DNA of 64,000 nt from Lama guanicoe (lineage: Eukaryota): NCBI GenBank assembly GCA_013239625.1, contig MU053196.1, positions 186,001 through 250,000 on the forward strand, written 5' to 3'. The notes below the pieces were generated by a model, which saw only the letters and a list, made by a program, of their open reading frames with translations, was not told the DNA's origin and searched no databases. Position 1 is the stretch's first letter, and every line of letters starts with the position of its first letter. Shown piece after piece: positions 10,161 through 56,505 of the stretch. The position numbers were made by a program, and so were the translations under genes.

Positions 10161-10165
10161 TTCGC

Positions 10166-13006: not shown

Positions 13007-13400
13007 TTTAAATTTCCCGCCTCTCCAGCTGGCGCAACTTCTCGTGGGACGTGTGCGGCGTGGGCGGGGCCCCGCAGCTGCTGCCGGTTGACTTGGGCGG
13101 TTGAGTTCCGGTCCGTGGGGAAGTCGCCGGCTCTGTTCCAACCGGCTGGATGCGGCGGCAGGCGAGGCCCAGCGGAGCCGCTAGGCCGAGTTGCTGACCA
13201 CGGAGAAGCCACATTGCAGCGGGACAGCGACTGTGTCGGCTCCGGAGAGGCGCGAAGACCGGCCTGGAGGTAGGGCAGGCGGCGAGGGCAGTGCTCCGAG
13301 CTAGGGAGAGCGGGCTCGGGGGCCGCGCGCAGTGAGGCCGCAGAGGCCGAGGTGAGGAGAGCGGAGCCAGGGAGGCCCAGCCCGGCTTTAACGGTCGGGC
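13007..13400. promoter_or_regulatory. Compact CpG island / probable promoter with a + strand non-coding first exon
   Basis: Dense CpG in an AT-rich background. GC box GGGCGGGG at 13062-13069, ETS-like TTCCGG at 13106-13111, E2F-type TTTCCCGC at 13013-13020. Donors GAG|GTAGGG (13269/13270) and GAG|GTGAGG (13351/13352). Confidence 0.8.
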
Positions 13401-14559
13401 TTCTAGTGACAAACTCTTTCTCACTCTTCCTTTGTAGGAGAACATCTGTATTTCTCTTTTCTTGTTGAAGTTTAATCCTCTGGAGTTAGAGGCAGAAAAG
13501 TTCTGCAGCGATATTTTTAAAACATAAATTTTGGAAGAGGTAGTGTCAAAAGTTAAGAAAAGACTAAAACCAATAAATCGCTGAAGTAGTAATTAGTAAA
13601 ATCTCATTTTCACACACACCAAAAGATAGTGAACCAGGAGCACTCAAACCAGAAGGTGGAATGAGGTTCAGGGGTATTTTGTTATAAAGCAACTTTTATA
13701 GTGAGAAGGCCGTGACTTAATTTTGCTTATGATTTCCAGATAGCAAAGAGTCTCAGGTTTGACTGTTGAAAACCAGTGTAATTCAACAACATAGCATTTG
13801 CAAGCTAGAGATCTTGGAAAAACATTAGGTAACAATGAAAGATACAGTGAATTGAATTCAATTAAAATTAAAGGAAAGCATGGATAACAAATAATAAAAA
13901 TACAGTAACGAAAATCATTATGTGATAACAAATAGAAGTCTTAATGCTGAGTAATATAAAACCAAAATGTAAAAAACAAATTTCTGTATACAAAAGAATT
14001 TATGAAAGCGTATTGTATTTGGAGAGTAAAAAAAAAAAAGAATCTGTGACTGATCAGGTAGATAAAATTTAAATGAGAAAATGAGAACCTGCCATATAAT
14101 AAGCACCAAAATAATCTTTAATTAAATTGATATAAATACTTCAGTAAATAAGTAGAACCAATAGATGTATGTTGTATTTTATATGGTGTAGTCAATAGTT
14201 TTTCATATGGTCATGGAATGTTTTCCCCCAATGCCAAATATTAGATACTAGACCACAAAAAGTTCAATAAATGTTTAAAAAATATTGATGTAAAATATAA
14301 ATCCAAAAAATCAAGAAACTCTGCTAAACACATGGGGAAAGATGATGGAGCTGATTAAAGGAATTCTGGTCCTTATTTTAATATTTCCCAAGATCATTCC
14401 AGATGGCCAGCATGAGTTCAAATATGTTTTTGATAATCATGTAAAAGTACCACTTTCCATCACCAATAAATTAAAAAACTAAACTGCAATGAAGATTTTC
14501 ACTGGAGATTTATATAAAATCTGTAATTTTTTCATGAAACACAATAAAAAGGAAAACAA

Positions 14560-15810
14560 AGTTATTTATATCTTATAAATCTCTTCTCCCCCTCCCTCCC
14601 TCACCTCAGGCATCCATCTGTTCCCTGTATCCGTAACTCTGTTTCAGCTTTGTTCTATTTGTTCATTTTTGTTTTTCAGATTCCACGTATAAGTGAAGTC
14701 ATACAGTATTTGTCTTTGTCTGACTTCACCATTCATAATATCCTCTAGATCCATCCATGTTGTCACGAATGGCAAGATTTCATTCTTTTCTTATGGCTGA
14801 GAATTGTTTCATTGTATATATAGACATCATCTTTGTTCATTTGTCTATTGATGGGCACTTTGGTTGCTTCCATATCTTGGCTATTGTAAATAATGCTGCA
14901 GTGAACACTGGGATACATATATCATATATTTTGGACAAATAACCATGAGTGGAATTTCTGGATTGTATGGTGGTTTTTTTACTTGGGTTGTTTGTGTGTT
15001 TAATGTTGAGTTGCATAAGTTCTTTGTATATCTTGGACAGTAACCATTATTGCCTATGTCATTTGCAAATGTCTTCTCGCATTCAGTGGGCAGCCTTTTT
15101 ATTTTGTTAATAGGTCCCCTTCACTGTGCAGAAGTTTTCTGGTTTGATTAGGTCCCATTTGTTTATTTTTGCTTTTGTTTCTTTTGTCTGAGGAGACAAA
15201 TCCAAAAAATACTAATAATATGTCAGAGAGTGTACTGCCTGTGTTTTCTTCCAGAAGTTTTGCGGTCTCAGGTCTTACATGTAAGTCTTCAATACATTTT
15301 GAATTTATTTTTGTATATGATGTGAAACACTAGTCCAGTTTGATTGTTTTGCATGGAGCTGTCCAGCTTTCCCAAGACCATGTATTGGAGAGTCTGTCTT
15401 TTCCCCGTTATGTATTCTTGCCTCCTTTGTCATAGATTAATCACTCATGAAAAGGTGGGTTCATTTCTAGGCTCTCTGTTCTGTTTCATTAATCTATGTG
15501 TTGATTTTTCTGCCAGTACCATAATGTTTTGATGACTGTAGCTTTAGTTTGAAATTAGGGAGCATGGTATCTCCAGCTTTGTTCTTTAGATTATTTTGGC
15601 AGTTCTTGGGTCTTTCGTGTTTCCATACAAATTTTAGAATTATTTGTTCTAGTTCTGTGAATAATACCATTGATATTTCCATAGGGATGGCATTAAAGCT
15701 GTAGGTTGCTTTGGGTACTGTGGTCATTTTCACAATATTAATATGCAACATAGCTTTCCATCTGTTTTTGTCATCTTCAGTTTCTTTCATCAGTGTCTTA
15801 TAGTTTTGGC
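14560..15810 (-). mobile_element. L1 (3' UTR and ORF2 C-terminal half)
   Basis: Minus-strand ORF INIVKMTTVPKATYSFNAIPMEI...ELEQIILKFVW; plus-strand text agattccacgtataagtgaagtcatacagtatttgtc. Confidence 0.9.
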
Positions 15811-18800
15811 TTTATTCTTCATCTTATACTTGGTGCTTTTCTCACCAGCCCAATTCAGGCTTCTGCTGAGGGACAGGCAACAAGAGAAGACACCAAGTTT
15901 AGAGGAAGATGCTCACGCACTTATAGAATTCCCTGAGCCAGCTCAAGAATAGACAAAGTGACTTTCTTTTTCAGATCTCTATATCTGGTAACTTAGTGTC
16001 ACTTGTCAGTAACAAAACCCCCGAATGGAGCCAGAATACCAGCTGCTTCACGCTCATTGTTGTCCAGGGCAGCTGTAGACGTGTACCTTTCTTTTACTCT
16101 GAGGCTTATTCAAGTTGATGTCCATATTTGGCTGTTTCAGTAAATGAAAGTTAAAAAATAAAAAGGTGTATGTGATGAGAGTAAAACTAGTTGAAGACCC
16201 ATGAAAGTAGTCAGAAAGATGAATGTTCTCCAAGTGTTCTGTGTTCATTAACCAATTAGGATTTTCATATCAGTTGTACTGTCAGACCAAATGGGTAAGT
16301 TTTTCAGAGCCTGCCCTGTGAGCTCAACTGACAATCACAAAATTAGGCTGCATGCTTTTCAAATTCATACACATCACCAACAATAAAAATTCTGAAGTCT
16401 GAGTAAGTTTGCAGTTACGCTGATGCGTAAGGAAGATCGGAACCCAAGGGGTAGTCTTCATAATACTCACTTTCCATCAAGGCTTCCAGGGAGTATGGGC
16501 CCCAGTACTGTTCTGCACATTTATGAGGCATCTGGGAGGGGCTCAGCTATGACTCTGTAACAAGGTGAAAATCCGGAGATAAAAGGCTCGTCTCTCTTTG
16601 GTTAACCTTGTGAACATCTCCTGTATTCTTCTCTGCAGAGCCGGCCCTCTCCATGATGGCTGCTGGCTGTGAAAAGCACGAGTGTGTCACGAGGCTGATG
16701 CCCACCTCGACAATGCCATTGTCAGTGCCTTAACCTAGGTTCTGAGAGTCACAAAGTTGGGACCCAGAGTTATGAGTGCTGCAGCCCCTTCAGCTGTGCT
16801 GAGTGTTTAGGAGTGGGGAGAATGTTGATTTTCTGATTCAAGCTTATATCTTCTTAAAGACTAGAACCAAACATAGTATGTCATGAATGTGGCTCAAGTA
16901 TATATGCTTGCAGCCCCACTTACTGGTGGCTCAGATTCCAGTCTAGCAGGAGGCTAGGACTTCATGCATCCATTTCTCTCATGGAGATCAGCTCAGCCCA
17001 CAAAACTTACCCGACTGCCCACCTCTGGCCAACTCTGATTCCCAGGGAGGGACACAAGGTGGACTCAACACTAACAGAAATACACACAAGTGCATCTTCA
17101 ACTTTGACCTAAGTTGGTATTTTGTTAATCTTGCAATGTAAAAATGATAATTCACCCTTTCTGGATTTTATCCTTTTGAGCAACTGTTGTAGCCAAACAA
17201 AGATGTCCATTGAAACTGAAGCCAGTGTTTCAATTTCCCAGAATGTCTCCTCTTTATAGATTATTTTCCATTTCCTTTAGGCAGAAAGTCCTATAATGGT
17301 ATTTATCTGAATCCCTAATACAGATGCTCCTCAGAGGATTCATATTTGAGATGAGTAGAATTCCTATTCCTATGAAAATTATTTCTCTTCATTGTTTCCT
17401 TCTGTTTCAAGGGCAAGTAATTCAATTTCTTAATGTCTCTAGTGATCTGCTGACCACTGTCAAGCAATTATCATAATGATCAAAGAGTAGGCCATTATCT
17501 GAGATGGTGTGATAGCTCTGCTAACTTCTGAAGTGAGCATCCATGCGTTTAAGGACAGTGAATGTTCTCCACGTTATAATCTGGACTATATATCTCTTAA
17601 CAATAGGCAATAAACACAGGAGGTAGAAATCATTTATTGAAGTGGAGATAGAGTGATATATTTCTACTGGTTATAAAATTCAGCATATCTTGAGTCAATG
17701 GGAGACCGTAGTAAGAAAATACATTTTAAGAATTAATGGAATTTAGGGATTTAAAGGAAGTGGAAATGTCACTTCAAACCTAATAAACCATTTAGGTCTT
17801 TGCCACAGTTTGATGTCAAGCTGAGGCAAGGTGAAGGAGAGTAAGAACTCTTTCTTGCCTTGAAGTTACTCATCAGTGGACTTCTCCCACAATGAATAGG
17901 GTTTTAGAAACGATGATGTATCTGTGGAGCAGCTAATCTGTGTTTTTGGACAGCTTGCTTGCGGAAGACCTCTCCCAGCTAGACCGGAGGTCTTGGAGTC
18001 TGTTCAGCCTTGTGATGACTCATTCTGGCCGTGGTGCCAGCTTCTTGGGAACTGCCTCTAGTTCTCTCTCGAGGTTCTTGGTGTATAACAGAGATAGTCG
18101 TCAGTCATAGGTTTCTGAGCAGTCTCACACTAAGGCAGAATAAATACCATCTTCCACATCACCTAACTTTTCTTTAACTGCCCTGCTCAGCTTTTTGTTC
18201 CCCTTTCCTCCTCCCTGGCTCCCTGGACCACTATTCACCCCCTTCTTTTCCAGCTGACTTAGCCTAGTTGGTGACGCAGATGCATCATCTTTCTCTTGAA
18301 GATTTCCCTGCTCTGGAATATGTTAAAAAAAAAAAGAACTTCCACTTGACGAAATTCATAATTTTCCTGTTTGACCTGATACTAAAGTTGACAAATTTGG
18401 GTGAATTAATGAACCTGCAGCAGATATAATTAAATGTTAGTATGCAGCCATACTAGGCCATCCCACTCGTGTTTCAAATAAAGTAAAATAGGGTTGGAAA
18501 TTTAATCAACAAAATGGGCACGGGAATTTGTCTTGATGCAGTCCTTAGTGGAGCTCTCAAATCAGCCAAATAGGGAGACACTGCTTCGAGTGGCTTCTAC
18601 TTTAAATTTACCTGTAGCTGCATGAATTGAATGCAGTTGAATTCATAATCCATCTATAATTCATCTGTTACGCTGTTGAAAAGCACTCATTCTGTAATTG
18701 TCTGAGTTAAAGAAAATAGTAGATGCTTCTGAGAAAATCTGACCTCATTGTCCTTGACTGGAGCATTATATGATGCTTCATACCAAGACCTTTTCAGATT

Positions 18801-20239
18801 TTAATTGAGTTTTTATTTATTTTATACTTAATTTAGAGATGCCTTTTCTTTTTCAGCAGTCATACCCTCATATAGAGGTTGGGCTCTCCTCTGTCAGATC
18901 CAGTAGCTGCCAGTCATAGCAACAGAGCATTTTTAGCCTCAGCTGACTTGCTTGGACATTTGAGATGAGATCACCAGCGATCATCAGTTTCCTCTTCTAC
19001 CAACTGCAGCCACAAGATGGCGATGTGACAATTTAAATAAAGCCAAAAGGTTTAGAGCTTTGTTTCATTTCGTTCAGGGAATTTTAAAGACAGTAGAATC
19101 CACTTTTAGCAACTACTTAAGTTGGATTGGGAACCATATCCCACAAAGGGTGACTGTTGGTGCTGTGGTTCATGAGACGGCTGACCTCTAGTCAGTGGTG
19201 CCACGTGGAACAGGATACAGTTCTATAGGTGCAAGCACACCTCTTGCCTTTTCCTTCTCTCTGATGTGCTCAGGTATAGTGGTTGGTGCACGTCCATGGC
19301 TTCAGCCTTGACAGAGTGATGAGAAGGTTTCAAATGACTTTGTCTGTCCCTGGAAGACAGTAGCAGACACTTTGATTTTGTTTTTCTTCCTGTGAGATGA
19401 ACAGAGTAAATTCCATCCAAAAAGTTAGCTTTTGTAGGACAATAAATCCTACTCTTTGATAGTTAAGTCATTTAATAATTCTTCAAAATCTCTTGTTTTT
19501 CTCAGTGAGATGCTATATGATGAGCCTTACTTTGTAATTATTTGGGTTCTTGATTCATTATAGAGAAATGTTTCATGTATTTTGGGACCATGCAGTTTGA
19601 AATATGCAAGTGTGTGTGTGTTTTTTTAGAATGTACAGGCCATGTTTCTTTCCATGTGACCTAGAATTTAAAAGTATATAGTAACTATCTAATGGAAAAT
19701 TTGTGAAGATTAAGGAAATAATCCATGTAAAACATGTGGTACATGTACATCATACAACAAATGTTAGTTATTATGTTATTACTGTTTTTTTGTTGTCATG
19801 TTCATAGTTGGTGTTCCATTGGCAGTTATTCCTGGGAACCAGTTAGCTTTGTTCTGTCACAAAGCCACAGCTAAGGTGATTAGCTGATTTGAAAATGCAA
19901 TCAAAATAATATTAATAGCTAATTCACGTTGACTAAAACTTTAAAATGTATGATTTATATGCATCATTTCTGCCTTCTCCCTCATTCTTCCTTTTAGATT
20001 GCCCAGAACAGCTCAGCTCTTTCCCCTACAGTCAGGAATTACTGAATAAGATGTTTTCACCACTTTAACCAATGCTTAGCTGTGTTTATCTTTGACAGAA
20101 CCATAGGAGAAAAGCAACTGTGATCTCAGGTACTGTCACTCATAGTGATCTGAGTGGGGCTGGATGCCTTTTGCCCCTGCAACTCTGGACTCTGAGGGTT
20201 AGATGTCCTGGTCCCTCAGAGTGCACTTTTGCCAGGGTC

Positions 20240-21550
20240 CTTGTAAATTACCATCTACATCAGTCAACTGGGCACGTTGAATTCGTTGTTTACAGAGACT
20301 GACAGGCAGGTGCAGACACCGTCTTGGCAGGAATAATTGATGCTGAACATCAAGAGGATGAGGACTTCTGATACACAGTTGTGTTGAGGGTGATACTTAA
20401 GGAACCAAAGTGGACTGTTTAGGTACCCTTGGTTCTCCTTATGGATTGAATTGTGTCCCCTCCTCCAAATTGGTGTGCTGAAGTGTTAACCTCTAGTGTG
20501 ACTACATTTGGAGATGGGACACTTAAAGAGGGAATTAAGGTTCAATGAGGTTATAAGGGAGGAGCCCTAATCCAACAAGACTGGTAAAACTTAGAAAAGA
20601 GGAAGAGAAACCAGAGCTCACGAATCTCCCTGCATGTGTAGAGGAAAGGCTGTGAGAGGGCATGGTAGGAAGGTGACCATCTGTAAGCTAGGAAGAGGGG
20701 CCTCACTGTAAATCACCTCTGTTGGACCTTGGACTTCCAGCCTCCAGAACTGTGAGGAGGTAAACGTCTGTTGTTTAAACCACTTAGTCTGTGTATTCTG
20801 TTAGGGCAGCCTGAGCAGAGTAAGACATTCCTCTTGTCCATTTTATTCTATAAATGAACAGTTATAGCAACTCCAGCCTGAGAACAGCATGCCAAATGGG
20901 GACCCAGTCCCCTCCGGGATCAGAGTTTGGATTGTGTCACCAAATAAGCCCTGAGACCAGAGGAGATGGGAGCTGAGAGTCCGGGAATCCTGCAGGGGTA
21001 GTGGAAGAAGGTGAAAATCAGTGTTGATTGTGGATTGGACAGCAGTTTCTCTCTACAAAGCTGCTTTTACATTTCTCTCAAGAAGCGAGGCTTTGTGATT
21101 CCTGAAGATGCTGTTCCTTGAGGATACATGCAGGTAGGACTCACAGTGGTGCACAGGGGGTATCTGTAGTAGGACTGTGGACCACCAGATCCCTTTTGAG
21201 GGGAGTGCTTGTTACCTCAGGTGTTGCAGCAAATAGTCTTTACCTGTTGAATGATGTCTCAGTGGCATAGCCATCTCATATAAAGGCATGTCCTCTCAGG
21301 GTCATTTCACATCCAGTGGCTGATGGAGGCCAAAGTATAAAGGCTCATTTGTTTTGTTCCAAAGCAGGTCCACTCCAAAGTGTCAGTTGAGCTCTGGCGA
21401 GGCTGTCAAACCTTACAGCAGTTTGACCTTTTCCTCTGCTCAATTCTGATTCCTCCCCTTCCAGGATTGTTGATTTAACTGATGCTCCGTTATCAGTATC
21501 TTAACCCTAAACTGTCTCAGAGTCTGCTTTCCAGTAACTTTAACCTGTAA
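20240..21550 (+). mobile_element. ERVL internal remnant + LTR16-like LTR (~21165-21550), interrupted by an MLT1A-like LTR
   Basis: Polypurine-like ggggg followed by tgtagtagga at ~21165; LTR end tctcagagtctgctttccagtaactttaacctg. Confidence 0.5.
20438..20828 (+). mobile_element. MaLR solo LTR (MLT1A-like)
   Basis: tatggattgaattgtgtcccc...ttggacttccagcctccagaactgtgag...tctgttgtttaaaccac...gcagcctgagcagagtaagaca. Confidence 0.85.
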
Positions 21551-22485
21551 TGTTCACTAACAGTTGGGGTACTCTTCTTAATGGGGACTGTTTAAAGTCT
21601 CTGTTTTTCATTTGAGATCCTAGTCACCTCTGACAAAATGCAGAGTCACATTTACCATTTGGTTGCATAAACAATTACCTTTTGACTGAGGTTTGTGTGA
21701 GTTGGTTCATAGTCCAGAGAGTCCTCAGTGTAACCAAGAGATGAGGCTTGTATGCATGAAAATGTGTCAGTGTTGTATTGGAGCTCACTGCTAGGCCCCC
21801 GTCACTCTGATGCCTCCTTTCCTGAGAAGACCATACAGGTTGTAGGGAGATGGAAAAGGCTAGTATAATAGAGCTGAGAAACACTGAATTTTCCTTCCAT
21901 GGGTGATACATAACTAGGTATAATCTTATTTTTGTGCTAAAATTGTGTCCAACCGACAGTCATTGTAATTGATATTAAAGGGACCAAAACAAATGGGACA
22001 AGCTGTGTGTGATCAGTTTATTTTGAGATGAGACACCCATCCTGGGTAGACAGCCTGTAATTCTGTAATTACATTCTGCAAGCTATGTGAAACAGCAACA
22101 GCAACAGCAGCGGAAAGCACCGTGTTCGATTTGCGCATCCTGATTGGCACAACGCAGAATAAGAACATCCGACTTGATTGATAAACTCCTTTTCTGAACA
22201 GTTCCTATCAGTCCATATTTCTTTGGTGCATCAGATGTCTTTGTTCCACTGAGATTGCCCTTGGATTAGCCATATTCCTCTACAGAAACTGGGGGAAAAG
22301 AAAAAGGAAAACAATCTGAGGAATTTAAATAGAAGAAAAATCCTTTACAAACTAAATGACTTTATATTACAAACAAATCATTAAACAATAAAATACTTAG
22401 AAGAGTTTTTAGTTTAGTTTTTGTATAGTAACTTAGATCTGGATTAATGGAATTTTATGATACAGAACACTGATACTGACTAATT

Positions 22486-27200: not shown

Positions 27201-27283
27201 GAAATAGGATTGATAGGAATCAAAGTGAAAAAACAAGAAAGGGAAAATTTCATAAATCCTGTATGGGTAAAAAAATGAATTCC

Positions 27284-27284
<1 letters not shown>

Positions 27285-27314
<30 letters not shown>
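27285..27314. repeat. (TG)n microsatellite
   Basis: ~15 TG units. Confidence 0.95.
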
Positions 27315-27316
<2 letters not shown>

Positions 27317-44300: not shown

Positions 44301-47300
44301 CAGTTCCGTAGCCTCTGTCAGGTTCTTTTGAGGAGTGTGACCCAAAAAGGTCAAAGGGTACTGTTCTTGGTCACGTCCACCGTGTGTTAAGTACACAGCT
44401 CCTTATTCGAGGCACTGAGTTGTCAGTTCGTCTTATTCGTAAGATTAACACGTTGGTATCACGGATGGTTCTTGCCCTCAGGCGTACAAATATCTGCGAG
44501 AAGAAGTCAAAACTTTCCAAGGAAAACCAATTAAGGTAAGCGGGACCTTTGGCTGTACTTTGTGTGCGAATCAGTGTTCCTTAGTATTCTCCCAGAAGCT
44601 TACTGTTTTCACACAGGTGCGGATAAAAGCAAAGGCAATAGCTATAAACACATTTTTGCCAAAGAACGGCTTCCGGCCCCTGAACTTGAGCCTCTACACG
44701 CAGCAGCGCTACACGGCCTCGTTCTACTTGCCTTCGTTCTACTTGCCTCCGGTCTACAGCGCCCAGCAGCACTTCCCTCTCTACAGCCTGGTCGCCCCCC
44801 AGGCCTGGTCAGCCACACACAGCTATCTCAACCCGCCCCTGGTGAGTCCGGCTTCATGTGGGGCTCAGGCGGGGACACCTGCCCCAGCGCAGCAGCCCTC
44901 ATGGTCAGTTTATTGGGAGGCACGGGGGCTGGCTGCACACACTGAATGCATTTTGTGTGATGTGATCCAGCCCTTTGCCCAGGTTGCCTCCCTCCAGTCT
45001 GGCGTTCCCTAAGCTGTGTAGTCCTTCGTACAACGCAGAATGTGACTGCACGTTCCAGGAGAGCTGGGGCACTTGCAAGCATGAGGGGTGCAAGGAGGTG
45101 CATCTGAAAAGGGTTTTGCAGTGGGCTCCCAGCAGTGCAGCCGAGGAGAAGACACTCTAGCGGGCCTCACCCTGCTGCGCCTTTCTCGGAGTGGACGTTC
45201 CTTGCAGAACGTGGAACAGAGGTGACCCAGGTTGCCGCAAGGTGCAGCACTAACCAACTGAAGTCTCTTTGTTCTTAATAAATCTAGGTAACTCCATTTC
45301 CAAATGCTGGATTTATAAATGGGTTCACGTCTCCCACCTTCATACCTGCAGCATTTCCTCTGGCCTCCCTCAGACAGTACCCTCCAGGAAGCAGGTAAGT
45401 AATATGAGGTCACCGCCATACTGTGTGCTTTCAGAGCAGAGCAGAAACATGACACGTGGAAAACCTTGGCAGTCCTCACCACGTGCTCAAGTCCCCCTGA
45501 CACTCGCTGATGATAGATTTGACCAGCGTTAATGTCCATCAGACATGAAACACCCAGAAGTGTGGGATCACGCACTCTGAGAATTAGACCCTCAAATGTG
45601 TGCTGTGGTGCCTGCAGAAAGGACAGGCTCACTGGAGACAAAGGCTTCTGGGGACCTGGACCATAGCCAAGCAGAGCATTGATGTTGTTTTCAGATTGGC
45701 ATTATCAGACATACTATAAGTTAACAATGCTAAATAAAGCTTTTTGTATTTTTTTCTAAATAGAACACTTTTGCCTAGACGTTTGCGTATTAGCATGCTC
45801 ATTTTGTGACTCTGTGACCGTTCTAGAGCTGAGCTGTACAAATGCTTTATTTATAGGAACCCTAGTAATTCTCATCCATGCCATGCCATCCCCAGTGCAG
45901 AGAGAGGGCCTGGGCTCCTGGAAAGTCCTTGCATGTTTACCTTCACTGAGGATCAGCTGATTAATGGTGTCCAGAGCCCGCAGATGAGGCCGGCAGGTCA
46001 GCCTCAAGCACGGGCACAGAACCCTCCAGCCTTCGCCAAGAGAGACGCAGGGCCGGGGCGCGTGGAGCCGGGCAGTCTGGAGCCCTCCCCTGGCTTAGGT
46101 AGAGGAAGGTGAGTGCTTAGTCTTTGCTGGGCAGGCACCTGGTGTTCTATAAACTGTTTGTAGTTTCAGGTTCCATTCATTTAGGTGTGTTCTGCAATCA
46201 TTATTTTCAAATCCATCACAGAAAATCACATTGAAGGCTGTAGCCATCAGAGGTTTTGTGTGATTACTTAGAGGGTAACTTTCAGAGCAGGCACTTGCTG
46301 GTTCCCTCTTTTTGGTGATAGGACACCGTCCTGTGAGGACTGGGGGTGGGCTGAACCGTGTTAGGTCCCAGTCATCCTTTGTGGAGAATTGACCAGCCTC
46401 CGTGTTCTGTGAGCCTGTGGTCGCCCCGCCTCACTCCTCCTGCCACTGCAGAGTCATATGGCAGGCAGGCAGTGAGTTGTGTGGGCGGGCAGACCAGAGT
46501 TTAAATTCATATTGAACTTACTTATAAACAAGAGCTGTTCCGGTTACGTGGTGCCGCTGGCCACATTTAGGGGAGGTCTCGCCTGCCCTTCCATGGCTCT
46601 GGCAGGTCCTGCACAGCCTGCCCCTTGTGCCCTCTCCCCGCTCACTTCCATGGGTGCCACTCCCTGTCTCGCCCTCTGCGGGGGACAAGATGGGAACGGG
46701 GAGGGGTGCAAGGGTTCATCAGTGATGTCTGGCACGGCCTTGACAGGTGGAGGCTGGCTTTATCCATTTCCTTCCCTCAGCGGTTAATTCCAAACGGGCT
46801 GCCAGGAAGGACTTGCCCTCTGACCCAAAGCCACAACCAGCACGTGTTCAACCTGCCTAAGATTTTTTTTTACCCACTTGGAAAACTTTTAAGAACAATT
46901 TCTTCATGTGTTCTGTACAGAGCAGATAGGACCATGTCTGACACACAGAAGCCCCTCCGTCAGGCACCCGGTGTGCACCCAGGGCAGTGTGGATGTCCCG
47001 TTCACCATGGCTGGGTGGAGTTGGCATGGCCGGGGCTGCGTAGCATCAGGAAATTGGACATGAAGTTGGCTGGACAGGCACTGGAGGGCTGAGGGGCAGA
47101 GGGGACACTGAGGAAGTGCAGACGCAGCGACCTCAGGAAGCACCTGCTGCTGGGGGAACGGCATGGGTTGTAAACTGAGGGGCCTGGAGCAGGGCCTGCG
47201 GAGCTGAGGCTAGGCCCTCAGAAAGGTGGTCCTTGGGCGCAGTCAGGGCTGGTTAGAGATGGTGCGGGAAAAGTGCCACCAGGAAGACTCGTTCCCAGGC

Positions 47301-50300
47301 CTCGCCATCGTCCTGGGCATGGAATAGGGCCCGCAGGTGCAGAGCCACTGCCCAGCGTCTCCACGGTGGGGGCAGGCCACGCATCTCAGGTGGTCCTGCC
47401 ACCACTTCCGGCTTCAGACCACAGCAAGATGCGTGTGGTTTGTCCAACTTGTGGAGACCTCCTCCAGTAGGGGGTCGAGCTCCCCCCAAAGAGTGCCCCA
47501 GGACTTCATCCAACACCAGCCAGACATCAGGAAGGGGGAATGGTCAGCTGAGGTGCCCTGGGACGTGAAGCCGGCAGGGAGGGGCTGGTCAGGACGCCCT
47601 CATGGTCCTTGTTTCCAGACCAGGCCTCGGGCTCTTCAGGGCTTTTCAGCTGGAGTGTCGTTCAAACGCAGAGGGCAGGGGGGCTTTGTAGTAGGACTGC
47701 AGCCCAGGCCGAGACATGCTGCTTCTGCCGGGGTCGGGGTGGGGGTCTCATAGTCATGCCCGTCTTCATGACTTTGTGCCCATGCACCACGGGCAGAATG
47801 TTCCTCAGTCCTGTGGCATCCTGTGGGCAGGCATGTAGTCTCCATCTGCTGGGAGCCCCTTGAAAGCTGGGGACTATTTCTGGACTAGTTTCTACAGGAG
47901 GGTGTGGCTTTGGGCCAGAGTCCTGGAGGCCTGCACCGTGCTTCCCCTAGCGGGGCGGCCAGGCTGTCCCTGCTCAGCACAGGGGTCACACTCTGACACC
48001 TTAGGCCATCTTAGGCAAGGCTGCTGGGAGGTTCTCTGAGAAATAAAGGAATTAGTTGAGATTATTTCTAAATTCCCTTATAGTTTATGTAATACAGCCC
48101 TTAGGGAGCCTTTGCTTTCAGTGAAATGACAATCGATAAGTAAATAAAAGTAAAATTATGAACTGGAATTAGTATGTGGCTTGTCAGGCCGTGGAAGCCC
48201 GGGCACCACCCACAGTTTTGGCTGCGGCGTGTGGAACGGCTCTGCTGCCTGCGGGTGTGACTCTGCAACCTGGGAGCCCAGAACGGGGGTGTAAGGATGG
48301 CAGACAGGTGTAGAAAGCACAGGGGCTCCGCGACCTGCGTGGTTGGTTCAGCCAGTGAAGGCTGTTGGCCCAGAGCATGAAGGCCGGGGCAGTGAGCGCC
48401 TGCAGCTGCTTGGCATCTTGGTGATGACCACGCAGATGGGCGTTCATCACCGCTCTTTAATGGTTCGTCTTTGTAGCTCAGGATCAGATCTTACACGTCT
48501 TCTACAACTGAACGGATACTCAAGTATTTGCATGCTAACAGAAGTTCCAAATGGGAAAATCCTTTCAGTGTGTGTTTTACTTACCTTGCTAGACCTCAGG
48601 TTTAGTCCATTACTGTAAAATGTCTGTTTTGCTTACGCTCGTTAGGGTTGGGAATTCAGAATCAGAAGTCATCTGTATAAAGGCTGAATATACGTGCACT
48701 ACCTATGTGCTCAGTGAAATATGTTTCAAGGGGAAAAATTTAACAGTCCTGTGCTTTCCTCTTCCCTAGGAAAAACTCCCTTGGCTTCCAGAAGAAGAGC
48801 GAAGAGAAGTTCACAGTGAGTACATCGTGCCGCGCTCGGGACACTGAGCCTGGTTTACACTGAACAGACTTGAAGTGTAATTCAGTCAATTAAGGCACGA
48901 GAAGGAGCTTTTCAAAAGCCGTTTCCTCATATTACGACGTCTGCCAGATGATAATGGACGGTATTGATGCTCTGAAGAGAAGGCGGTGGTGGCTGGTTTC
49001 CTGAGGAGCCCCCGGTGCCCACGTGTCCTGTGCAGGTCACAGGCGCAGCCAGGGCGCGGTGTGGGCACAGTGGGGTCCGTCCGCAGGTGTCTAGCTGGGT
49101 TCTTTCTGTGTGGTAACCACGTCACCTGCTTTGAAATCCCTGGAGTTACAAGTTTGGGCACGCAGAACAGACCTCCCCCCCGTAGGAATTAGCTCATGAG
49201 TATTTCTGATTCACAGTAGCTTACTCTGTCCCCACTATGTAGGGAGCATAGTTGCCTCCTGCCATAACTCACGGTCGCGACAGACCCAGAAATGAGTGAT
49301 GATTTATGCAGGTGGTGGGTACCTGAGGCGTGGTCATGTCTGCTGGGGGTGGTTGAATGGCCCCTTCCGTGGGGGACACTCTGCAGGGCTCTGGGGTGGG
49401 TGCATGCGTCCCCACATGGCCAGGTGGGGTGCATGAATTTGGACGCTGGTTGTAGAGGGCAGGGAATGACCTTGGGGAGATTCTTGGTCTCACCCCGAGC
49501 CACTGAGCATGTGCCTTCTCCTCACAGAAGGTACCAGGTATTTGCCTGGAGCTTGGAAAGGGCAAATTGGTAGAAAATGAACACCCCTAATTCTATCATA
49601 TTGGTCATTTCAGGCCAGTTTTCGGTGAACCCTTCGGTAAGGCAGTTTTATGTCTGTTCTCGTTGGAACCAATGAATTCCTGTAACATTTGGATGAACAA
49701 GTCTGTGTCTGATGTCTCCTCAGACACTCGTTACCTTTTAGTCACTACATCACCTTCAAAGGTGACATTTTTTTTCCATTGCCATTTCCATTTCATTCTG
49801 TTTTGCATTCCGTTCCCATATTTGGACCTGGCGCCACTTAGAAGCCCAGCACGTGGAGCAGATGTGTGTGTTCAAGAGTGGGCCTCTTGTTGCGCTGGGT
49901 GGTCTGAGGGCCTGAGAAACCAGCGATGGGTCCCAGACTGTGTGAGCGGGAGGCGAGGCCCAGCCCGGCCCGTGGCACCAGGGGCAGCGCTGTGTCTCTC
50001 CTAACGCTGTTGAGACCCTGAAAATGCTACACACATCTCCTTCGTTCCTGGAAATTGAGACTTAGTAAATTTTTTTCAAGTATTTTTTCCTAAAAATGTG
50101 TATTTTCTAAAAAGCTGAGTTCACCTCAGAAACATGCAGATGTTTAAAATAAAGCCTCTAAAAATTGCTCTGAGCTGGTGGGGTCTGAGCACGAGCTTGC
50201 CGAACCTCAGAGTGTGCAGCAGCCTCGTTCCGAGGGCTCGTGCCTGCCTGAGTCGGGCTGCCGCGGGCCCCAGTGGCACTGAGGGGATGCAGGCAGGGGG

Positions 50301-53300
50301 CCCAGAAGACATGGCTTCGTCAGCTTGGGTCCGCTTTCATCCTCACCTGCTCTCCCCTGAGTGCTAACAGAGTCTTCTCCAGATTTTCCTTCTGTGGGGA
50401 TGGTTTTCCTGTTGGTGTAAGTTTCTGGGACAGGTTGGCCCTTTCAGGCTTCGTGGGCCCTGTGAGAGCCGAAGGGGCCCACGGCCCACCGCTCACCGCG
50501 AACGCCCCTGCTCTACTGAATACGAACGCGGTTCCTTGTCTGCTCCTTGTCCCTTTCAGCCAAGGAGCTGGGTGCTTACAGAACAGCATCCAGCAGGATG
50601 ACTAACAGTGTTTCAGTAAAAATACGTCACTGCCTTTCTCCTGAGATCCTGGGCTTATAAATCATGCTCAGATATCACTGTGCTGAGTCACTGTCTTACA
50701 GTCAGGGGACATGATGAGACTCTTAGCAAATACCATGCTTTTACTTACTGATTAAAATACAGGGCATTTCAGTAAGTTAGTTTTCAGATAACTGGAGCCC
50801 CCTCCCTTTTTCTGTTAAACTGTTTCTTTTAAAGGAAATCTCTGTAACATTTCTTACATAAGTTGTAGGGAGCTGAGAGAGTGGCCTCTGTTTTTCTTTT
50901 ACTGTTTCCTTTGTGACTTAGATTGCAGACTCTGCTGTAATAACACGGAACTTGTCAGGAGTGAGGAAGGTGAAGGCTGGACTCGGGCTCTTCTGCATCT
51001 GGCACTTTGCTGTGTCCTCCTGGTCTGTGTCGGCTGCCAGAGGGTCTTGGTGGCTGTACAGATGCGGCTCTTACCCCCATCTCTGACCGTGGCTGCAACA
51101 GCCCTGAGGTTTCATCTTCTCAACTCTGCCCTTGAAGAGCTCTTGCCTAACAGATGAGCTCTTTTCAGGTGACCACGGCTTGGCATGGTTGGACTAGCTG
51201 TCCATTTGGAGGCAGGTGTGGACACCAGGAGACTGGGGACCAAGCGTGGGCCTCCCTCACCTGCTGTGTTTCTCAGCACCTTCCTGCCCGTCCACCCCAG
51301 GCAACTTCATGGTGTTCTTCTCTTTCAGAGGAGTCAGACTCAGTCTCCAACACCACCCAGGCCTCCGTCCCCTAGCTTTGAATTAGGGCTGTCCAGCTTC
51401 CCCCCGCTGCCCGGGGCAGCAGGGCATCTGAAGACAGAGGATTTGTTTGAGAACAGGCTGTCTGGATTGCTCACAGGATCGTCCAAAGAAAGGGTAAGAC
51501 CCAGCTCCCACCCTCTGCTCGCTGACACCTACCCAGCACCTATGTGGGCTCTGTGCTCACCTGCTCGCTTCCACATGCACAGGAGGCTCGTTATGTGCCG
51601 GGCTGTGCTGGGCACTGTGCTGTCAGGGTGAACCGAGGACTTCCGATGCCTGGCCAGTGGGGAGGAGGGCTGCAGCTGGTGGTGCTGGACCACAGAAAAG
51701 GGCCTCGGATGAGATACGTCGACAGCTGCAAGAGGATGGGGGCGGCTGCGGCCTGGCTGTGTTTCCAGCTCTGGTCTGGGCTGAGCACACCCGTCCTCAG
51801 GGCAGGACCACACCTGGGCTTCCAGCACTGTCAGCCACATATTTGTCATTACGTCTGGGGTCTCACAGACGCTTGTCTACCGGTTGTAAACTGTTTTTCC
51901 GATGGTTTTCAGAGCCTAAACGCAGATGCCAGCATGAACACTCTTCCCACGGTAGTCCCCCAAGAGCCCTTGTTGCCGGCCCCCTGTGCCACACCCACCA
52001 CCATCGAGCATGCTCCCTTCCTCCCCCGCCCGCCCAAGTAAGTGCCACCCTGTCCCCATCCCCACGTGTCCCCACTGGGCTGCCCGTGGGCGGGGCACTC
52101 ACAGGCCTGTTGGGTGGCACTTTTGCAGGGATCCCAAGGTGGTGGAGAAGCAGAGGGACACCACAAATGTGTTCAGACTTCCTCCTGTCCTGAGTACAAC
52201 CGCCAGCAAATCTGTGCAGGTGAACGGCGCCACCACGGTAGGTGCCCCGCTGGGCGCTGTGCTCTGTCCAGGGTGCCCTGCGGGGTGCTGGCACTCGTGA
52301 CTGCCCGCTCTGCTCATTTCTCCTGCCACGGCCAAGGGTCTCCCGGCCTTGGGCTCCTGAGCGGGGCTGCCTTCCTGAGTGGCCTGGGGCTTGCAGCTCC
52401 AGGCTCCGCGGGGCTTCTGGCCACCTGAGCATGTTGGGACCAGGGCCACTGGCCCAGCCCCGCCCCAGGCCGCTGGCCCCTCCTCTTGTCTCCTCCCCTG
52501 GGTGCTGGTCCCGACTCCTTTCTGTCTGATCTGTGTTGTCCTCAGCTTGATGCCGGGTGGGCTTTAATCACCTGGATTTGGAAGTTAAGCGCTTCTTGTC
52601 CACTAGGTTTTCTCATAAGTTACAGTTATTTTTAAGTTAATAAGCAGTTGATGGAGGTGACGTAGCTTTAAATGTTCTCTTCTGTCTTAACCTTCATCCT
52701 CCACTTACCTGCAAGCCCCGCTCACTTTTTAAACCTTTTTAGCTCTTGCCCGAGCCCCAGCCCGTGGTCGTTGCCAGATGCCCTGGAGCCGTGTTGCAGT
52801 TCACCTGCCTTGCATCCCTGAGGCTCGCACTGGGCTGCACAGGGTGTCTGGCGTGGAAGCACGTGCTGCCTCTGTGTTTCTCTAGGCGTCTGGTGTCTTC
52901 GCCTCCTTTCTGGCTGGAATGTGGCTCAGAAACGCCAGAAGGCCAGAGGCTGGAAGGAGTTTAGTTGGCACTTTGTATCCCCACACCTTTTCCAGTTTTA
53001 CCTGTTTTTACCACGTGTTTCTAGAGTATCTTGGAAGGAAAGATGGGCTGCAGTGGAAACTCATTGTTGAAATGTGGAAACTTTTTATTTAAAAGTAACA
53101 GTACTTTAGAGTGTGGAGATTTAGTTACAGTTGAATCTCTTTGAACTTTACGTCAAGTGACCTTGACCTTCGCATGCTGTCCTGTAACCCCAGAGCTGTG
53201 TCTGCTTCCCAGGAACTGCGAAAACCCAGCTACGCAGAGATCTGTCAGAGGACGAGTAGGGAGCCGCCGCCGCCCCCACTGCAGCCCCCAAAAGAGCAGA

Positions 53301-53485
53301 AGCTAAACACTGTCGGCTGTGGGAAGGAAGAGAGGAAGCTCGCCGAGAGGGAGCCCCCTGCCCCCAAGTCCAGCCCGAAACCACCCAGAGACCAGAGGAG
53401 GCCACTGGGGCACCGGCCCTCACCCCCAGCTGCGGGGCAACATCCGCACAGAGAACAGAGCACCCTCCCCAGGTCCCCTCAGTGA
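35277..53485 (+). CDS. LARP4B: La-related protein 4B-like (LARP4B homologue), 13 coding exons, 5'-incomplete; join(35277-35355,36762-36898,41976-42079,43331-43441,44482-44535,44617-44841,45288-45394,45857-46108,48770-48815,51329-51493,51913-52037,52129-52237,53213-53485)
   Basis: Manual splicing at AG/GT sites gives one open frame from [40 protein letters not shown]... to ...[11 protein letters not shown]. It contains the La motif, RRM and C-terminal motifs recognisable as LARP4B. May be a paralogue rather than the orthologue. Confidence 0.95.
36762..36898 (+). CDS. LARP4B: LARP4B-like exon 2 (La motif)
   Basis: tctgcag|G GAG AAT...AGG T|gtaagt; [45 protein letters not shown]. Confidence 0.95.
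39215..41530 (-). mobile_element. Intronic L1MB-type element (3' UTR + ORF2), GC-shifted
   Basis: tataaatggaatcag...cattctttcactcggcgtaatt; minus-strand ORFs [10 protein letters not shown] and [20 protein letters not shown]. Confidence 0.75.
41976..42079 (+). CDS. LARP4B: LARP4B-like exon 3 (end of La motif, start of RRM)
   Basis: gcacag|CT TTA...GTA GAG|gtaagt; [34 protein letters not shown]. Confidence 0.95.
42218..42480 (+). mobile_element. hAT-Charlie DNA transposon remnant
   Basis: agtggttctcaagctttctggtcttgggac, resembling a Charlie1 terminus. Confidence 0.45.
43331..43441 (+). CDS. LARP4B: LARP4B-like exon 4 (RRM)
   Basis: cctgtag|GAA GTA...CAA CAG|gtgagc; [37 protein letters not shown]. 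Confidence 0.95.
44482..44535 (+). CDS. LARP4B: LARP4B-like exon 5 (RRM)
   Basis: ccctcag|GCG TAC...ATT AAG|gtaagc; [18 protein letters not shown]. Confidence 0.95.
44617..44841 (+). CDS. LARP4B: LARP4B-like exon 6
   Basis: acacag|GTG CGG...CCC CTG|gtgagt; [22 protein letters not shown]...[14 protein letters not shown]; follows an 81-nt intron. Confidence 0.95.
45288..45394 (+). CDS. LARP4B: LARP4B-like exon 7
   Basis: aatctag|GTA ACT...AGC AG|gtaagt; [35 protein letters not shown]. Confidence 0.93.
45857..46108 (+). CDS. LARP4B: LARP4B-like exon 8
   Basis: tttatag|G AAC CCT...GGA AG|gtgagt; [24 protein letters not shown]...EPSPGLGRG. Confidence 0.93.
48770..48815 (+). CDS. LARP4B: LARP4B-like exon 9
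   Basis: ttccctag|G AAA AAC...TTC ACA|gtgagt; [15 protein letters not shown]. Confidence 0.92.
51329..51493 (+). CDS. LARP4B: LARP4B-like exon 10
   Basis: ctttcag|AGG AGT...GAA AGG|gtaaga; [55 protein letters not shown]. Confidence 0.95.
51913..52037 (+). CDS. LARP4B: LARP4B-like exon 11
   Basis: ttttcag|AGC CTA...CCC AA|gtaagt; [41 protein letters not shown]. Confidence 0.9.
52129..52237 (+). CDS. LARP4B: LARP4B-like exon 12
   Basis: tttgcag|G GAT CCC...ACC ACG|gtaggt; [36 protein letters not shown]; follows a 91-nt intron. Confidence 0.92.
53213..53485 (+). CDS. LARP4B: LARP4B-like last coding exon
   Basis: ttcccag|GAA CTG CGA AAA...[28 protein letters not shown]...STLPRSPQ*. Confidence 0.95.
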   Translation, partial: ELRKPSYAEICQRTSREPPPPPLQPPKEQKLNTVGCGKEERKLAEREPPAPKSSPKPPRDQRRPLGHRPSPPAAGQHPHREQSTLPRSPQ

Positions 53486-56400
53486 GTACCAAGGTCTGGC
53501 GGGCTGCGAGGAGCTGGGGTCGCCACAACGAAGCACTGTCCCTCTCGAGACGGGAGTGAGCTGCTGGTTAGGAGGTTGCAGTGTAGATAAGGTCCCCGAG
53601 GTACCTGCAAGTTATTTTTCTTCTATGAGTCGGATTTCCCCCCTCTTGAAAAAAATCTATTTTTCAGGATTTAATTAATATAAATCTTATTTTAGGTTGG
53701 TGCTTAACTGGAGATGATGCATAAGTCTGATTTTTTTCAGGATATAAAATGCATTTATCCTAACAAATTGATATTTTTTATTAAACCTCCATGTGACTAT
53801 GAATGCAAGCTATATATATAGTGAGTTTTTCTAAATTAAGCAGAACTATTGTACTTCATTTTTTAAAATAACTGGTTAGCAAGTGCATATCTCTAAGATG
53901 TCCAGACCGATGGATGAGGCTGAGGACAGTGGGACTGAGGCACGGGGCAATGCTGAGTGTAGCCCGGAGGTGGTATGGGTCAGAGGGCGCCGCACGCTGG
54001 CCTGGAGGTGTCCATCCATTCAGAATCTTGACAAGGGTTCTAGCATTTTCTTAAGTCTAGCCCGTTTTGATCGCCTGGGCAGAGTGACCCTGCAGAGCAC
54101 CCCAAGAGCCCTCCTGTCCTGCCAGCAAGTAACCAGCTTCTCACTCCAGTCTCAAGTGGCTGTTAAGTGAGATAAACCCAAAGCACATTGTGAATGGAAC
54201 CTACATGAGAACATAAACTTTGTTGCCCACTGACACGTTATCGCAAAATGATACCCTGATGTTGTCTTACTCCCGCGAGCTGGCAGGGAGGGTGTGGAGC
54301 CGGCTCCTGCATCGGCCCGTTGCCGGGGTGCCTCCCCATCCCTCTGCACTGGTGCGCAGCTCGGAACATTCCTGAATTGTGAGAGAAAGTGTTTGTGGTG
54401 CCCGTGTGGTTGTGGAGGACCAGTTTCCCGCTCTCTTCCCAAGACGAGGGTCTCATGGACCCTTCTGAAAGTGCTGCTCTCAGAAGAACACACATGCACT
54501 AAAGCTAGCAGTTGATGATAAAGTTAAACATAAGTTATTTTGTTTTAAAATACCTAAATTTTTCCTTTAAGTGTGCTAAGCAGCAGACATTAAAATAAGA
54601 ATATTTCCTGCTAAATGTAACCATACAGTTTATTCCACAAAATGTTATTTAACAAGCCTGAGGTTTTGTTTTTTTTTTTTTAACATGATTTCCATCCAAT
54701 ATTTAAAGACTTGAATTTTATTTAAACTTGAAAATGACTTTGCCTTAACTTTTGTATAGGACAGCTTAGAGTCCATGAGACCGGCCCCTGGGTTGGCGCG
54801 AGTGGTTGCCGCTGCTCAGCCGCGTGGGCTCTGTGTCGCTCGGGCTGCTGAGTGAGCGTGCTGCAGGACAGGACGTGGCGGCAGTGCTGTGACACCGGGA
54901 GGTCCTAAGCAGTTGGTCTTTCTTCAGATTGTTGAGAAATCCTGTAAGTGCAAATAGTTGATACTGTATTATACATGTGCACTTGGGAGCGTGTGGTTTG
55001 CTTGTACAGTTGTAAGTAATCAGAACATATTAAAAAGGTTCCCTACAGAGAAAAATCTGATAAAAACTGATATATTATAAATGTTGCTATTGAGCTGGAT
55101 GTAGATAAACTCAGTGTTGTGGTTTGAACATTATTTTAATTCTTTGAGGTTTTTTCTTTTTCTCTTGTACTGGTGTGTTGGGCTGACTCTGCCTCTTTGC
55201 TGCTGTGAAAGGGAGATGAAAAGTCTTATTAAAACCTTCCAATATTTTCATGCTCTTCCTAAAAGTATGTAAATATGTACTAATCACAGCTAATGTGAAA
55301 GGGTTTTTGAGGTATAATCCAGAAAGTAGAAACTGGCAGGATCTCAAGTGAAAGTAAGAAATGAGTCTACCTAGAATCACAGGCGGCTCGCGCGACCCTC
55401 CCGCCGGAGGAAACGGTGTCTCCCTCGAGCAGCGCCTCTGTCCTAGCGCGAGGCCCACATGGCGCCATGCTGCTGGTGCCCCAGGAAGGAACGGGGGACC
55501 TTGCTTCTTTGTGGTTGTGAGATTGCTGGCTGAAAGATCAGAAATAACTGGCCTCCTGCACCCAAACTGGTGAGTGCTGTAGAAGGAGTCAGAAAGGCCA
55601 GCTCCCAGTGCTGAGATCCCCTGACGCTGCAGTCTGTGCTGGAGGAGGGGGTGGATGTCGCCAGCCACCGTCACCCCCGAATGTCACCGCCTGAATCCGC
55701 ACCCTCTTGGAGCCCGAGGCCCTGGAGGCGTGTGCTTGGCCCCGTGCTGCTGCCGTTGGAGGATGGGTGGAGGTGGCCTGTGGCGGCCGTGGCCTACACT
55801 GCCCCCTCTGCAGTCCTGGCTTCTAGAGTTGACCCCACTCGGGGGTGATTTTTGCAGCATCCTTTCTAATTAAGCCAGGGTGCGTGCCCAACGGCCCCCA
55901 CCTTTCTGATCCTCCTCAGAAAAGAACGGAAGGTGCAGGGCAGGAAGCTGGGAGGGCAGCTCTGCCACGTGCAGCTGCCCGTGTGGCTCTTCCTCCCCCA
56001 ACAGTGTCTCGAGGTGCAGAGTCAGAGGTACCACAGTCACAACGGCGCTCTCGCCTGTTCAGCTATGTGACGACCCGCACCTCCTGAAGTGTAAGGGTGA
56101 GACCCTGGCGCCTCACCAGATGTGAATTTCAAGCAGTGTAGTTGCTTTTTAGGAGTCAGCGTCTTGCTGTTCTGACCAGGCCTCCTGTGATGGCATCACT
56201 TCTGGTCACTCCAGCAGCAGGAGCGCCTTCTGTGGCCGTGGGGAGGCCGCAGCGGGGCAGGCGAGTGTCCCCGGGGAGCAGTGACAATCGCAGCTGGAGG
56301 AGGGGCCTGAGCCCAGCTCCCGGGGGGCTGGACGCTTGGCCGAGAGCTTTTGTTTTTGTTCTGCTTCTTTTCATTGAGACTGGAATCAAGCTTACGTGTA

Positions 56401-56505
56401 AACTATTGGTAATTTAAGTTTCCTTTTGTGTCACTTCAGTGTAAAACTGTCTAATTTGAAAAAATGTAGGTTATGAAAAATAAAGATTTAGGCACTGGTT
56501 TTTCT
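53486..56505 (+). other. LARP4B: LARP4B-like 3' UTR (~3 kb)
   Basis: Follows the stop codon. AU-rich blocks alternate with GC-rich blocks, ending at AATAAA followed by a U-rich tract. The 3' end is approximate. Confidence 0.7.
56479..56484 (+). terminator. Polyadenylation signal AATAAA
   Basis: gttatgaaaAATAAAgatttaggcactgg followed by a T-rich downstream element, with several TGTA motifs upstream. Confidence 0.75.

Follow-up and report, generated by a model that had tools for sequence, protein, structure and literature searches.

Truncated or chimeric genes born of segmental duplication are known from primates, in which SRGAP2C, ARHGAP11B and NOTCH2NL are such genes. LARP4B, together with LARP4, links the 3' ends of mRNAs, the poly(A)-binding protein (PABP) and the ribosome. 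Here we analyzed a window of 64,000 nucleotides from Lama guanicoe (assembly GCA_013239625.1, 2.05 Gb in 55,231 contigs; contig MU053196.1, hereafter C332, positions 186001-250000) and found that it holds a second LARP4B locus, which is a camelid-specific chimeric paralogue made from two abutting segmental duplications. Like the primate genes, it goes back to a lineage-specific duplication at the DNA level that broke inside the parent and left a truncated paralogue keeping some interaction domains, and by analogy such a truncated copy may modulate the pathway of its parent. Unlike them, it took its 5' end from a second duplicated locus and has evolved almost neutrally. We regard it as probable that this paralogue is transcribed from its foreign part, is held by weak selection and is possibly failing in the llama/alpaca lineage; its frame, still open but evolving almost freely, would suit a gene that is young and new as well as one that is slowly dying.

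We searched the whole genome in six frames with the full-length mole LARP4B protein (P0012) and obtained 37 matches at E<=1, which revealed two LARP4B loci only. A complete exon series lies on contig C8182 (2315228-2362291) and includes exons for residues 1-89 (a weak match), 45-93 and 95-144, while the series on the window contig begins only at residue 144. In this search the N-terminal exons were found only on C8182 and none was found on the window contig. In the window itself, residues 1-142 of P0012 had no plus-strand match by tblastn, the sole match being a spurious one on the minus strand (E=4), and a comparison of the 100 kb upstream of the window with C8182:2300001-2400000, which has the N-terminal exons, returned repeats only, at 65-77% identity. 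The synteny agrees with this assignment of parent and copy. A NOG1/GTPBP4-type exon lies at C8182:2237183 and DMAP_binding (DIP2-type) exons lie at C8182:2540240 and 2557481, so that it is the C8182 copy that fills the interval between GTPBP4 and DIP2C; the window copy is outside that interval, and its upstream flank is DNA copied from contigs C55230 and C55226. The remaining matches included LARP4, the old vertebrate paralogue, on contig C8676, and a scrap of 229 bp (C26135) that is 100% identical to the window copy. A weak LARP4B-like match at C4172:15261104-15261421 (minus strand; residues 282-394, 46% identity, 3 stops) may be an old processed fragment.

The window was queried by tblastn with P0012 and with a camel model of the paralogue (P0001), and exon boundaries were then read from the sequence. 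The results indicated 13 collinear exons on the plus strand between 35277 and 53485, with E-values down to 1e-52, which rules out chance. All 13 acceptors are AG and all 12 donors GT (25 of 25 dinucleotides intact), and the joined exons amount to 1787 nucleotides with an open LARP4B frame of 595 codons and no internal stop, ending in TGA at 53483-53485. Exon 1 (35277-35355) contains the start of the La motif; it opens in phase 1 with two bases of a codon, 8 codons ahead of the Pfam La domain, and has no in-frame ATG. Exon 2 (36762-36898) continues the La motif and provides the first in-frame methionine (MYLISQ...), exon 3 (41976-42079) carries the end of the La motif and the linker, and exons 4 (43331-43441) and 5 (44482-44535) encode the RNA recognition motif (RRM). 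Exon 6 (44617-44841) carries an in-frame tandem duplication of 15 nucleotides that is specific to the paralogue. It is followed by exons 7 (45288-45394), 8 (45857-46108) and 9 (48770-48815), by exon 10 (51329-51493), which encodes the conserved region CR1, by exons 11 (51913-52037) and 12 (52129-52237), and by exon 13 (53213-53485), which encodes CR2. A homologue of the parental 3' untranslated region (UTR) extends over 53486-56505, is 5.0% diverged from the parent and contains AATAAA at 56479-56484. The sequence-only reading of this stretch had described 13 canonical exons with an uninterrupted frame, a 3' UTR and a polyadenylation signal, with the first exon opening in phase 1 immediately ahead of the La motif, and all of this was recovered. 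It had also reported no N-terminal exons in the 35 kb upstream and had proposed that the gene is a paralogue born of segmental duplication. Both points were borne out by the two loci described above, and the gene is not an ordinary one cut by the window edge: LARP4B is not a single-locus gene in this genome, no N-terminal exon lies upstream of the window on its contig, and a separate complete copy sits between GTPBP4 and DIP2C on C8182.

Positions 53478-53490 of the window read CAGTGAGTAC, in which CA/GTGAGT might serve as a donor within the stop codon and lead into an exon further downstream. Each of the six alpaca RefSeq models has ...SPQTA at its end in place of ...SPQ and a stop, as such splicing would predict.

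The copy retains all 12 introns, which are collinear with the parental introns and 94-95% identical to them (p=5.26%, Jukes-Cantor-corrected K=0.0546), and it was made by duplication at the DNA level; a processed, retrotransposed pseudogene was rejected on the same ground. In a blastn comparison of C332:86001-250000 with C8182:2300001-2400000, the segment derived from LARP4B (window 32747-64000, plus strand, corresponding to C8182:2341467-2372672) gave high-scoring segment pairs of 17,987 nucleotides at 92.8% and 13,748 nucleotides at 90.3% identity, gaps counted, and the MAFFT identity to the parent was 92-98% per kb. This segment goes on past the window to at least C332:275157, which corresponds to C8182:2400000; as the parental sequence was compared only up to that point, the total of at least 56 kb is a lower bound. 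The 5' breakpoint lies at window position 32747, in a parental intron 2.5 kb before the La-motif exon, and upstream of it only dispersed repeats match the parental locus. This break removes the exons for residues 1-143, including those of the PABP-binding motif PAM2w; a copy of this kind, made at the DNA level with its introns and broken inside the parent gene, is one mark of a chimeric gene formed by juxtaposed segmental duplications. Copy and parent have all 13 exon-intron junctions in common between the La-motif exon and the stop codon, and the copy keeps the La domain, the LARP4-type RRM, CR1, CR2, the 3' UTR and the polyadenylation signal, with an exon identity of 94.9%. It differs in the missing exons for residues 1-143, in its 5' flank, in about 45 lineage-specific amino acid changes and an SFYLP duplication, in the loss of a third of the exonic CpGs and, in this genome, in having no known in-frame ATG ahead of the La motif. 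In the parent itself, the end of exon 11 (~C8182:2360843) reads ...CCCGAAAGTGCC, and the window copy has ...CCCAAGTAAGTGCC there. Parental intron 11 thus apparently lacks its GT donor, an absence that would disrupt splicing or the reading frame; as the assembly is a draft, the cause may be a 2-bp error in sequencing through G+C-rich DNA.

The DNA in front of the breakpoint has a different source. Positions 12937-32747 of the window (plus strand) are a copy of C55230:31213531-31236637 in the same orientation, 85-93% identical, and the end of this segment is the start of the C8182-derived segment at ~32747, with no filler between them. Within it, 12937-13560 matches C55230:31213531-31214859 (85-90%), 13733-16500 matches 31216731-31219519 (93%), the region of an exon at 25.9 kb matches 31228993-31229242 (89%), and 29000-32747 matches 31232801-31236637 (90-93%). 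At the upstream end of the segment there is a CpG island on the plus strand (12990-13400; 411 bp, 69% G+C, CpG observed/expected 0.90, 43 CpGs), which contains a candidate non-coding first exon with possible donors GAG/GTAGGG at ~13270 and GAG/GTGAGG at ~13352. In its number of CpGs the copied island equals its source (43 against 43; observed/expected 0.88 against 0.90), and the differences from CpG to TpG or CpA between the two are symmetric (8 against 10). An island that had remained free of methylation in the germ line would be expected to retain its CpGs in this way. Immediately beyond the source island, ~694 bp (C55230:31214075-31214767) have no counterpart near window position 13470; either the copy has lost them or the source has gained them. 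As for the gene to which the source island belongs (C55230:31.2135 Mb), 63 of the 64 open reading frames of at least 60 amino acids from the flanks of the source segment, 9.5 kb on the upstream and 10 kb on the downstream side, had no Pfam match. The match of the other one to BC10 was rejected, being below threshold (17.9 bits, cut-off 27) and due to a low-complexity hydrophobic peptide.

The island is a candidate promoter, and the RefSeq models of other camelids use exons within the foreign segment that carries it. The N-termini of three of these models lie upstream of the junction or at it. Residues 1-40 of P0001 (MEEDCLCPP...) match 25926-26045 (plus strand) at 92.5% by tblastn; this recruited exon of the camel models supplies a start codon and a novel N-terminus of 40 residues, and it ends in phase 1 with the donor G/GTGAGA at 26045, in the right phase for the exon at 35277. 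In the C55230 source of this exon the ATG is present, but a stop follows after 10 codons, and there are a 4-nucleotide indel and a weak donor, GTGGGG; therefore, the sequence was not a coding exon before the duplication. A second candidate is an ATG directly before the donor GTGAGT at 29854-29856 (plus strand), which agrees with P0003 (alpaca model X2) in its first codon and is the only ATG/GTRAG site in 1-35277 by a regular-expression scan. Read in the window, this ATG would open an upstream reading frame that is out of frame and runs into exon 2, and X2 itself leaves out exon 2 and translates exon 1 in a different frame. The start of a second camel model maps to the junction (32715-32744), where the window has no GT donor. 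Inside intron 2, a small alternative first coding exon of alpaca model X6 (MAGSMF, an exact peptide match) lies at 38319-38337 on the plus strand, with the donor GTAACC. In 14 sequencing runs of RNA or presumed RNA, 0.20-0.24 of the 3'-end words of the copy were shared, a value that the 95% identical parental 3' UTR also predicts (0.95^31 ~0.20), so that it is evidence neither for nor against transcription; five runs of unknown kind shared 0.74-0.79 of these words.

The La domain (PF05383) is encoded by exons 1-3, and in the camel model P0001 it covers profile positions 1-59 of 59 with 61.8 bits, above the cut-off of 37.1; a start at the internal methionine of exon 2 would truncate it below that cut-off. 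A Pfam scan of P0001 and of alpaca model X1 returned the La domain only. The RRM of the LARP4/4B type (PF26088) is listed, as a precomputed annotation, for all five of the closest camelid proteins, and exons 4-6 of the copy match the parent at 96-100% identity. Among solved structures, those nearest to the La module of the camel paralogue are 6I9B, the La module of LARP4 (LARP4A; E=8e-76), and the La motif 2CQK (E=1e-33); LARP4, on C8676, is a different gene and not the parent of the copy. CR1 (FPPLP..AAG) and CR2 (RKPSYAEIC) are identical in the window and the parent and are predicted RACK1-binding regions, as which they are defined for LARP4B in the accessible part of PMC11565960. The copy does not encode PAM2w, which in human LARP4B comprises residues 56-70 and binds the MLLE domain of PABP according to the portion of PMC7356810 available to us. 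The proposals of the sequence-only reading that foreign DNA with a CpG island lies upstream, and that the paralogue lacks PAM2w and keeps the La module and the C-terminal motifs, thus agree with the copied 411-bp island, the breakpoint at 32747, the Pfam La domain and the intact CR1 and CR2.

The gene is already present in RefSeq as automated 'la-related protein 4B' or '4B-like' predictions in four camelid species. Among the best 120 of the 658 relatives of exon 6 with E<=0.001 (678 candidates in all), the five best proteins were all camelid, at 97-99% identity, followed by canonical dromedary LARP4B at 87% and other mammals at 76-84%. The predictions comprise six isoforms of 531-564 amino acids in Vicugna pacos (XP_072811103-112), two proteins of 634 and 603 amino acids in Camelus bactrianus (XP_074214098, XP_045360341), and one each in C. 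ferus (XP_032329725, 634 amino acids) and C. dromedarius (XP_064335415, 508 amino acids). They represent the same gene as the window copy: by eye, the window frame differs from alpaca X1 at 3 of 564 aligned positions, and it has 30-35 paralogue-specific changes in common with the camel models, although the latter start at an ATG that is CTG in the window. Along with the 90 exon sites at which copy and parent differ, the 15-nucleotide duplication in exon 6 is a diagnostic marker; it occurs in the window and in the paralogue models of alpaca, Bactrian camel and dromedary (that of C. ferus is garbled there) and in none of the canonical LARP4B sequences examined. In the maximum likelihood tree, the six camelid sequences formed a clade (100/100), within which the four paralogues formed another (100/100) that holds both Lamini and Camelus. 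The duplication therefore predates the split between camels and llamas, which the accessible text of PMC12337305 puts at ~16.3 million years for camels versus llama/alpaca. In the dromedary, paralogue and parent are each on a contig of 29,172,120 bp, and the two are therefore probably on one chromosome. A search of the full-text literature on LARP4B with camel or alpaca found no paper on a camelid LARP4B duplicate, and a paralogue-specific 23-mer had 0 matches for camel paralogue DNA in metagenome contigs.

If the copy had drifted freely since then, it should carry disabling mutations. The introns contain 68 indels in 15,813 aligned bases, of which 59 are of frameshifting length (42 of 46 outside repeats). 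The exons contain only two indels, of 15 and 6 nucleotides, both in frame, and none that shifts the frame in 1766 aligned bases. Under neutrality, 2.4-3.3 frameshifting indels, 1.2-2 stops and, over 50 splice-site bases, ~1.4-2.2 splice-site hits would be expected on the paralogue lineage, and none was seen; simulated neutral substitution on the parental coding sequence left no stop in 13-29% of trials. The joint probability of an intact frame and intact splice sites is 0.0005-0.003 when all intron indels are used and ~0.007 with non-repeat indels. The Camelus copy (P0001) is open over the same 13 exons. In the La and RRM region there are 7 non-synonymous and 8 synonymous differences, with a pairwise ratio of non-synonymous to synonymous divergence (dN/dS, omega) of 0.22 and a derived value of ~0.4 on the paralogue lineage; in the C-terminal part the pairwise omega is 0.57 and that of the lineage ~1. 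Four runs are free of mismatches to the parent, at 38884-39291 (407 bp), 44293-44570 (277 bp), 49857-50176 (319 bp) and 51224-51475 (251 bp). Such runs cannot arise at 5.3% divergence, and they are therefore short tracts of interlocus gene conversion, for which reason our age estimate is a minimum. Two of them cover exons 5 and 10. The near perfection of exon 10 (1 mismatch in 165 nucleotides) and the glycine that follows FPPLP in the window, where the alpaca and camel paralogues have arginine, are attributed to this process, and we rejected the perfection of exon 10 and CR1 as proof of selection.

Several observations weigh against a selected gene, and most of them are also what a duplicated pseudogene would show, that is, a copy, transcribed or not, without selection on its protein, whose frame has stayed open by luck, by gene conversion or through late loss. 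The exons are as diverged as the introns (5.10% against 5.26%). Between copy and parent, the NG86 method counted 55 non-synonymous and 35 synonymous differences (dN 0.042, dS 0.089, omega 0.47), and parsimony with outgroups assigned about 90% of the amino acid changes to the paralogue, with 30 on its stem, 13 in the window lineage and 6 in the camel paralogue, compared with 3 on the parent stem and then 2 and 2. The paralogue has thus changed 5-10 times faster than the parent, and with synonymous changes split evenly its lineage has an omega of ~0.9, indistinguishable from neutral (49 non-synonymous to 18 synonymous changes against the numbers of sites, binomial P=0.57). In the tree, the stem branch of the paralogues measured 0.067, against 0.010-0.029 after the camel-llama split, and there may have been an early burst of amino acid change after the duplication. 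CpGs were lost at 34 of 88 exonic sites (39%), more than in the introns (116 of 401, 29%) and against 3 of 57 (5%) in the parental exons; at 34 exon sites a parental CpG is TpG or CpA in the copy, and at 3 the reverse holds (P=1e-7). In place of the ATG of the camel models at 25926 the window has a CTG, with A at -3 and G at +4, and the ATG was lost in the lineage of this genome, because both the source locus and the camel models have it. Alpaca X1, which starts at the remaining first methionine (MYLISQ), retains only La positions 19-59 of 59, with 31.4 bits, below the cut-off of 37.1. The annotation is uneven as well, with alpaca isoforms X2, X4 and X6 skipping exon 2 or reading exon 1 out of frame, the C. 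ferus model flagged LOW QUALITY and the dromedary model ending after exon 11. Private amino acid changes are more numerous in the llama/alpaca lineage (12-13) than in Camelus (5-6), a difference that is not significant (P=0.17). Nevertheless, we consider a pseudogene possible but on balance unlikely. Against it stand the complete absence of the expected frameshifts, stops and splice-site hits, a frame that is also open in the independently evolving Camelus copy, a La module that is less diverged than neutral, and an island that has kept its CpGs. Gene conversion could help to keep the frame open and weakens the argument from retention somewhat; however, its tracts amount to only ~1.25 kb of ~24 kb (~5% of the gene), and conversion alone cannot explain the open frame.

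At the other extreme, the copy could be a working camelid-only gene created by promoter capture, a PAM2w-less LARP4B that would bind RNA and ribosomal RACK1 as before, would be unable to dock on the MLLE domain of PABP, and would tune or antagonize the control of poly(A) tails and translation by LARP4B and LARP4. Such a gene would have passed through a burst of amino acid change after the duplication and then come under purifying selection, at least in Camelus with its few private changes, and the 40-residue N-terminus of the camel models would be de novo coding sequence from an intron of another gene. We think this rather doubtful for the genome studied here, as the CTG at the start position, the sub-threshold La domain from the internal methionine, the omega of ~0.9 and the exonic CpG decay all speak against a simple new functional gene. 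Two explanations that dispense with a paralogue fare far worse. An assembly artefact, whether through chimerism of the contig or through a parental haplotype left uncollapsed, might be suspected in such a fragmented assembly, with a mosaic region and redundant scraps such as C26135. It is nevertheless very improbable, for the 5.3% divergence and 68 intron indels are far beyond allelic difference, and the paralogue-specific substitutions and the 15-nucleotide insertion recur in gene models built on separate assemblies of four camelid species, models that also join exons of the foreign segment to the exon at 35277. That the window shows an ordinary single LARP4B gene with its N-terminal exons upstream, behind a long intron, is practically excluded. 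The 5' introns of LARP4B are indeed long, with the parental first coding exon ~29 kb before the La exon, but this explanation was refuted by the second, complete copy in the expected synteny on C8182, which differs by 5.3%, by the end of parental homology at 32747 and by the preceding DNA, which comes from a different contig; nor does any N-terminal exon occur in 100 kb upstream on the same contig.

The 3' part of at least 56 kb was thus copied from the parent with the last 13 coding exons and the 3' UTR and without the exons for residues 1-143, the disordered N-terminal region to which PAM2w belongs. The 5' part was copied from the other locus, bringing with it the CpG island and ~20 kb of formerly non-coding DNA. 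Under the interpretation that we favor, a chimeric paralogue transcribed from foreign DNA and weakly selected, transcripts would arise within the foreign segment, with the island as their most likely origin, and be spliced into the exon at 35277. The predicted product would be a LARP4B-like protein with the La module, the RRM, the C-terminal PABP-interacting part, CR1 and CR2 and without the PAM2w handle for MLLE, and in camels it would be a protein of 634 amino acids with a de novo N-terminus. It could probably still join messenger ribonucleoprotein particles (mRNPs), because deletion of PAM2w did not stop the recruitment of LARP4B to mRNPs and its C-terminal region co-precipitates PABPC1 on its own, as set out in the accessible part of PMC7356810; docking on the MLLE domain would be lost. 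Weak selection would have kept disabling mutations out and constrained the La module moderately, with the disordered C-terminal half mostly drifting. In the lineage of this genome, without the camel-type ATG, translation would have to begin at the methionine inside the La motif or at a non-AUG codon, and the gene may be on its way to becoming non-coding or a pseudogene.

A natural variant that has the La module and the RACK1-binding regions and lacks the N-terminal region would provide, ready-made, a separation-of-function allele with which to study the role of PAM2w. The locus also offers a clean, datable example of the way in which a new transcription unit can be put together by two unrelated segmental duplications; the parts are a CpG island that was copied, exons recruited from what had been intron, and a start codon of de novo origin that camels have and the llama/alpaca lineage has lost. 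Should it prove to be only a decaying copy, its 95% identical exons and 3' UTR can still mislead read mapping, variant calling and orthologue assignment for camelid LARP4B.

The rest of the window is likewise rich in copied DNA. An Rfam scan of the whole window gave 0 matches. Positions 1-12608 are a patchwork of duplicated pieces: 1-5952 (minus strand) matches C55226 at 2.73 and 2.87 Mb (92-95%), 6019-6765 and 6782-12608 match C55230 at 31.02 and 31.06 Mb (90-94%), and 6770-7366 is a high-copy repeat of ~600 bp. Judged by these matches, the locus is a mosaic of segmental duplications of similar age, and the whole contig looks like a duplication hub. At the other end, 59000-64000 has a G+C content of 59-66% with a CpG observed/expected of 0.33-0.45, and is thus not a CpG island; it lies within the LARP4B-derived segment and is 7.6% diverged from the parent, more than the gene body.

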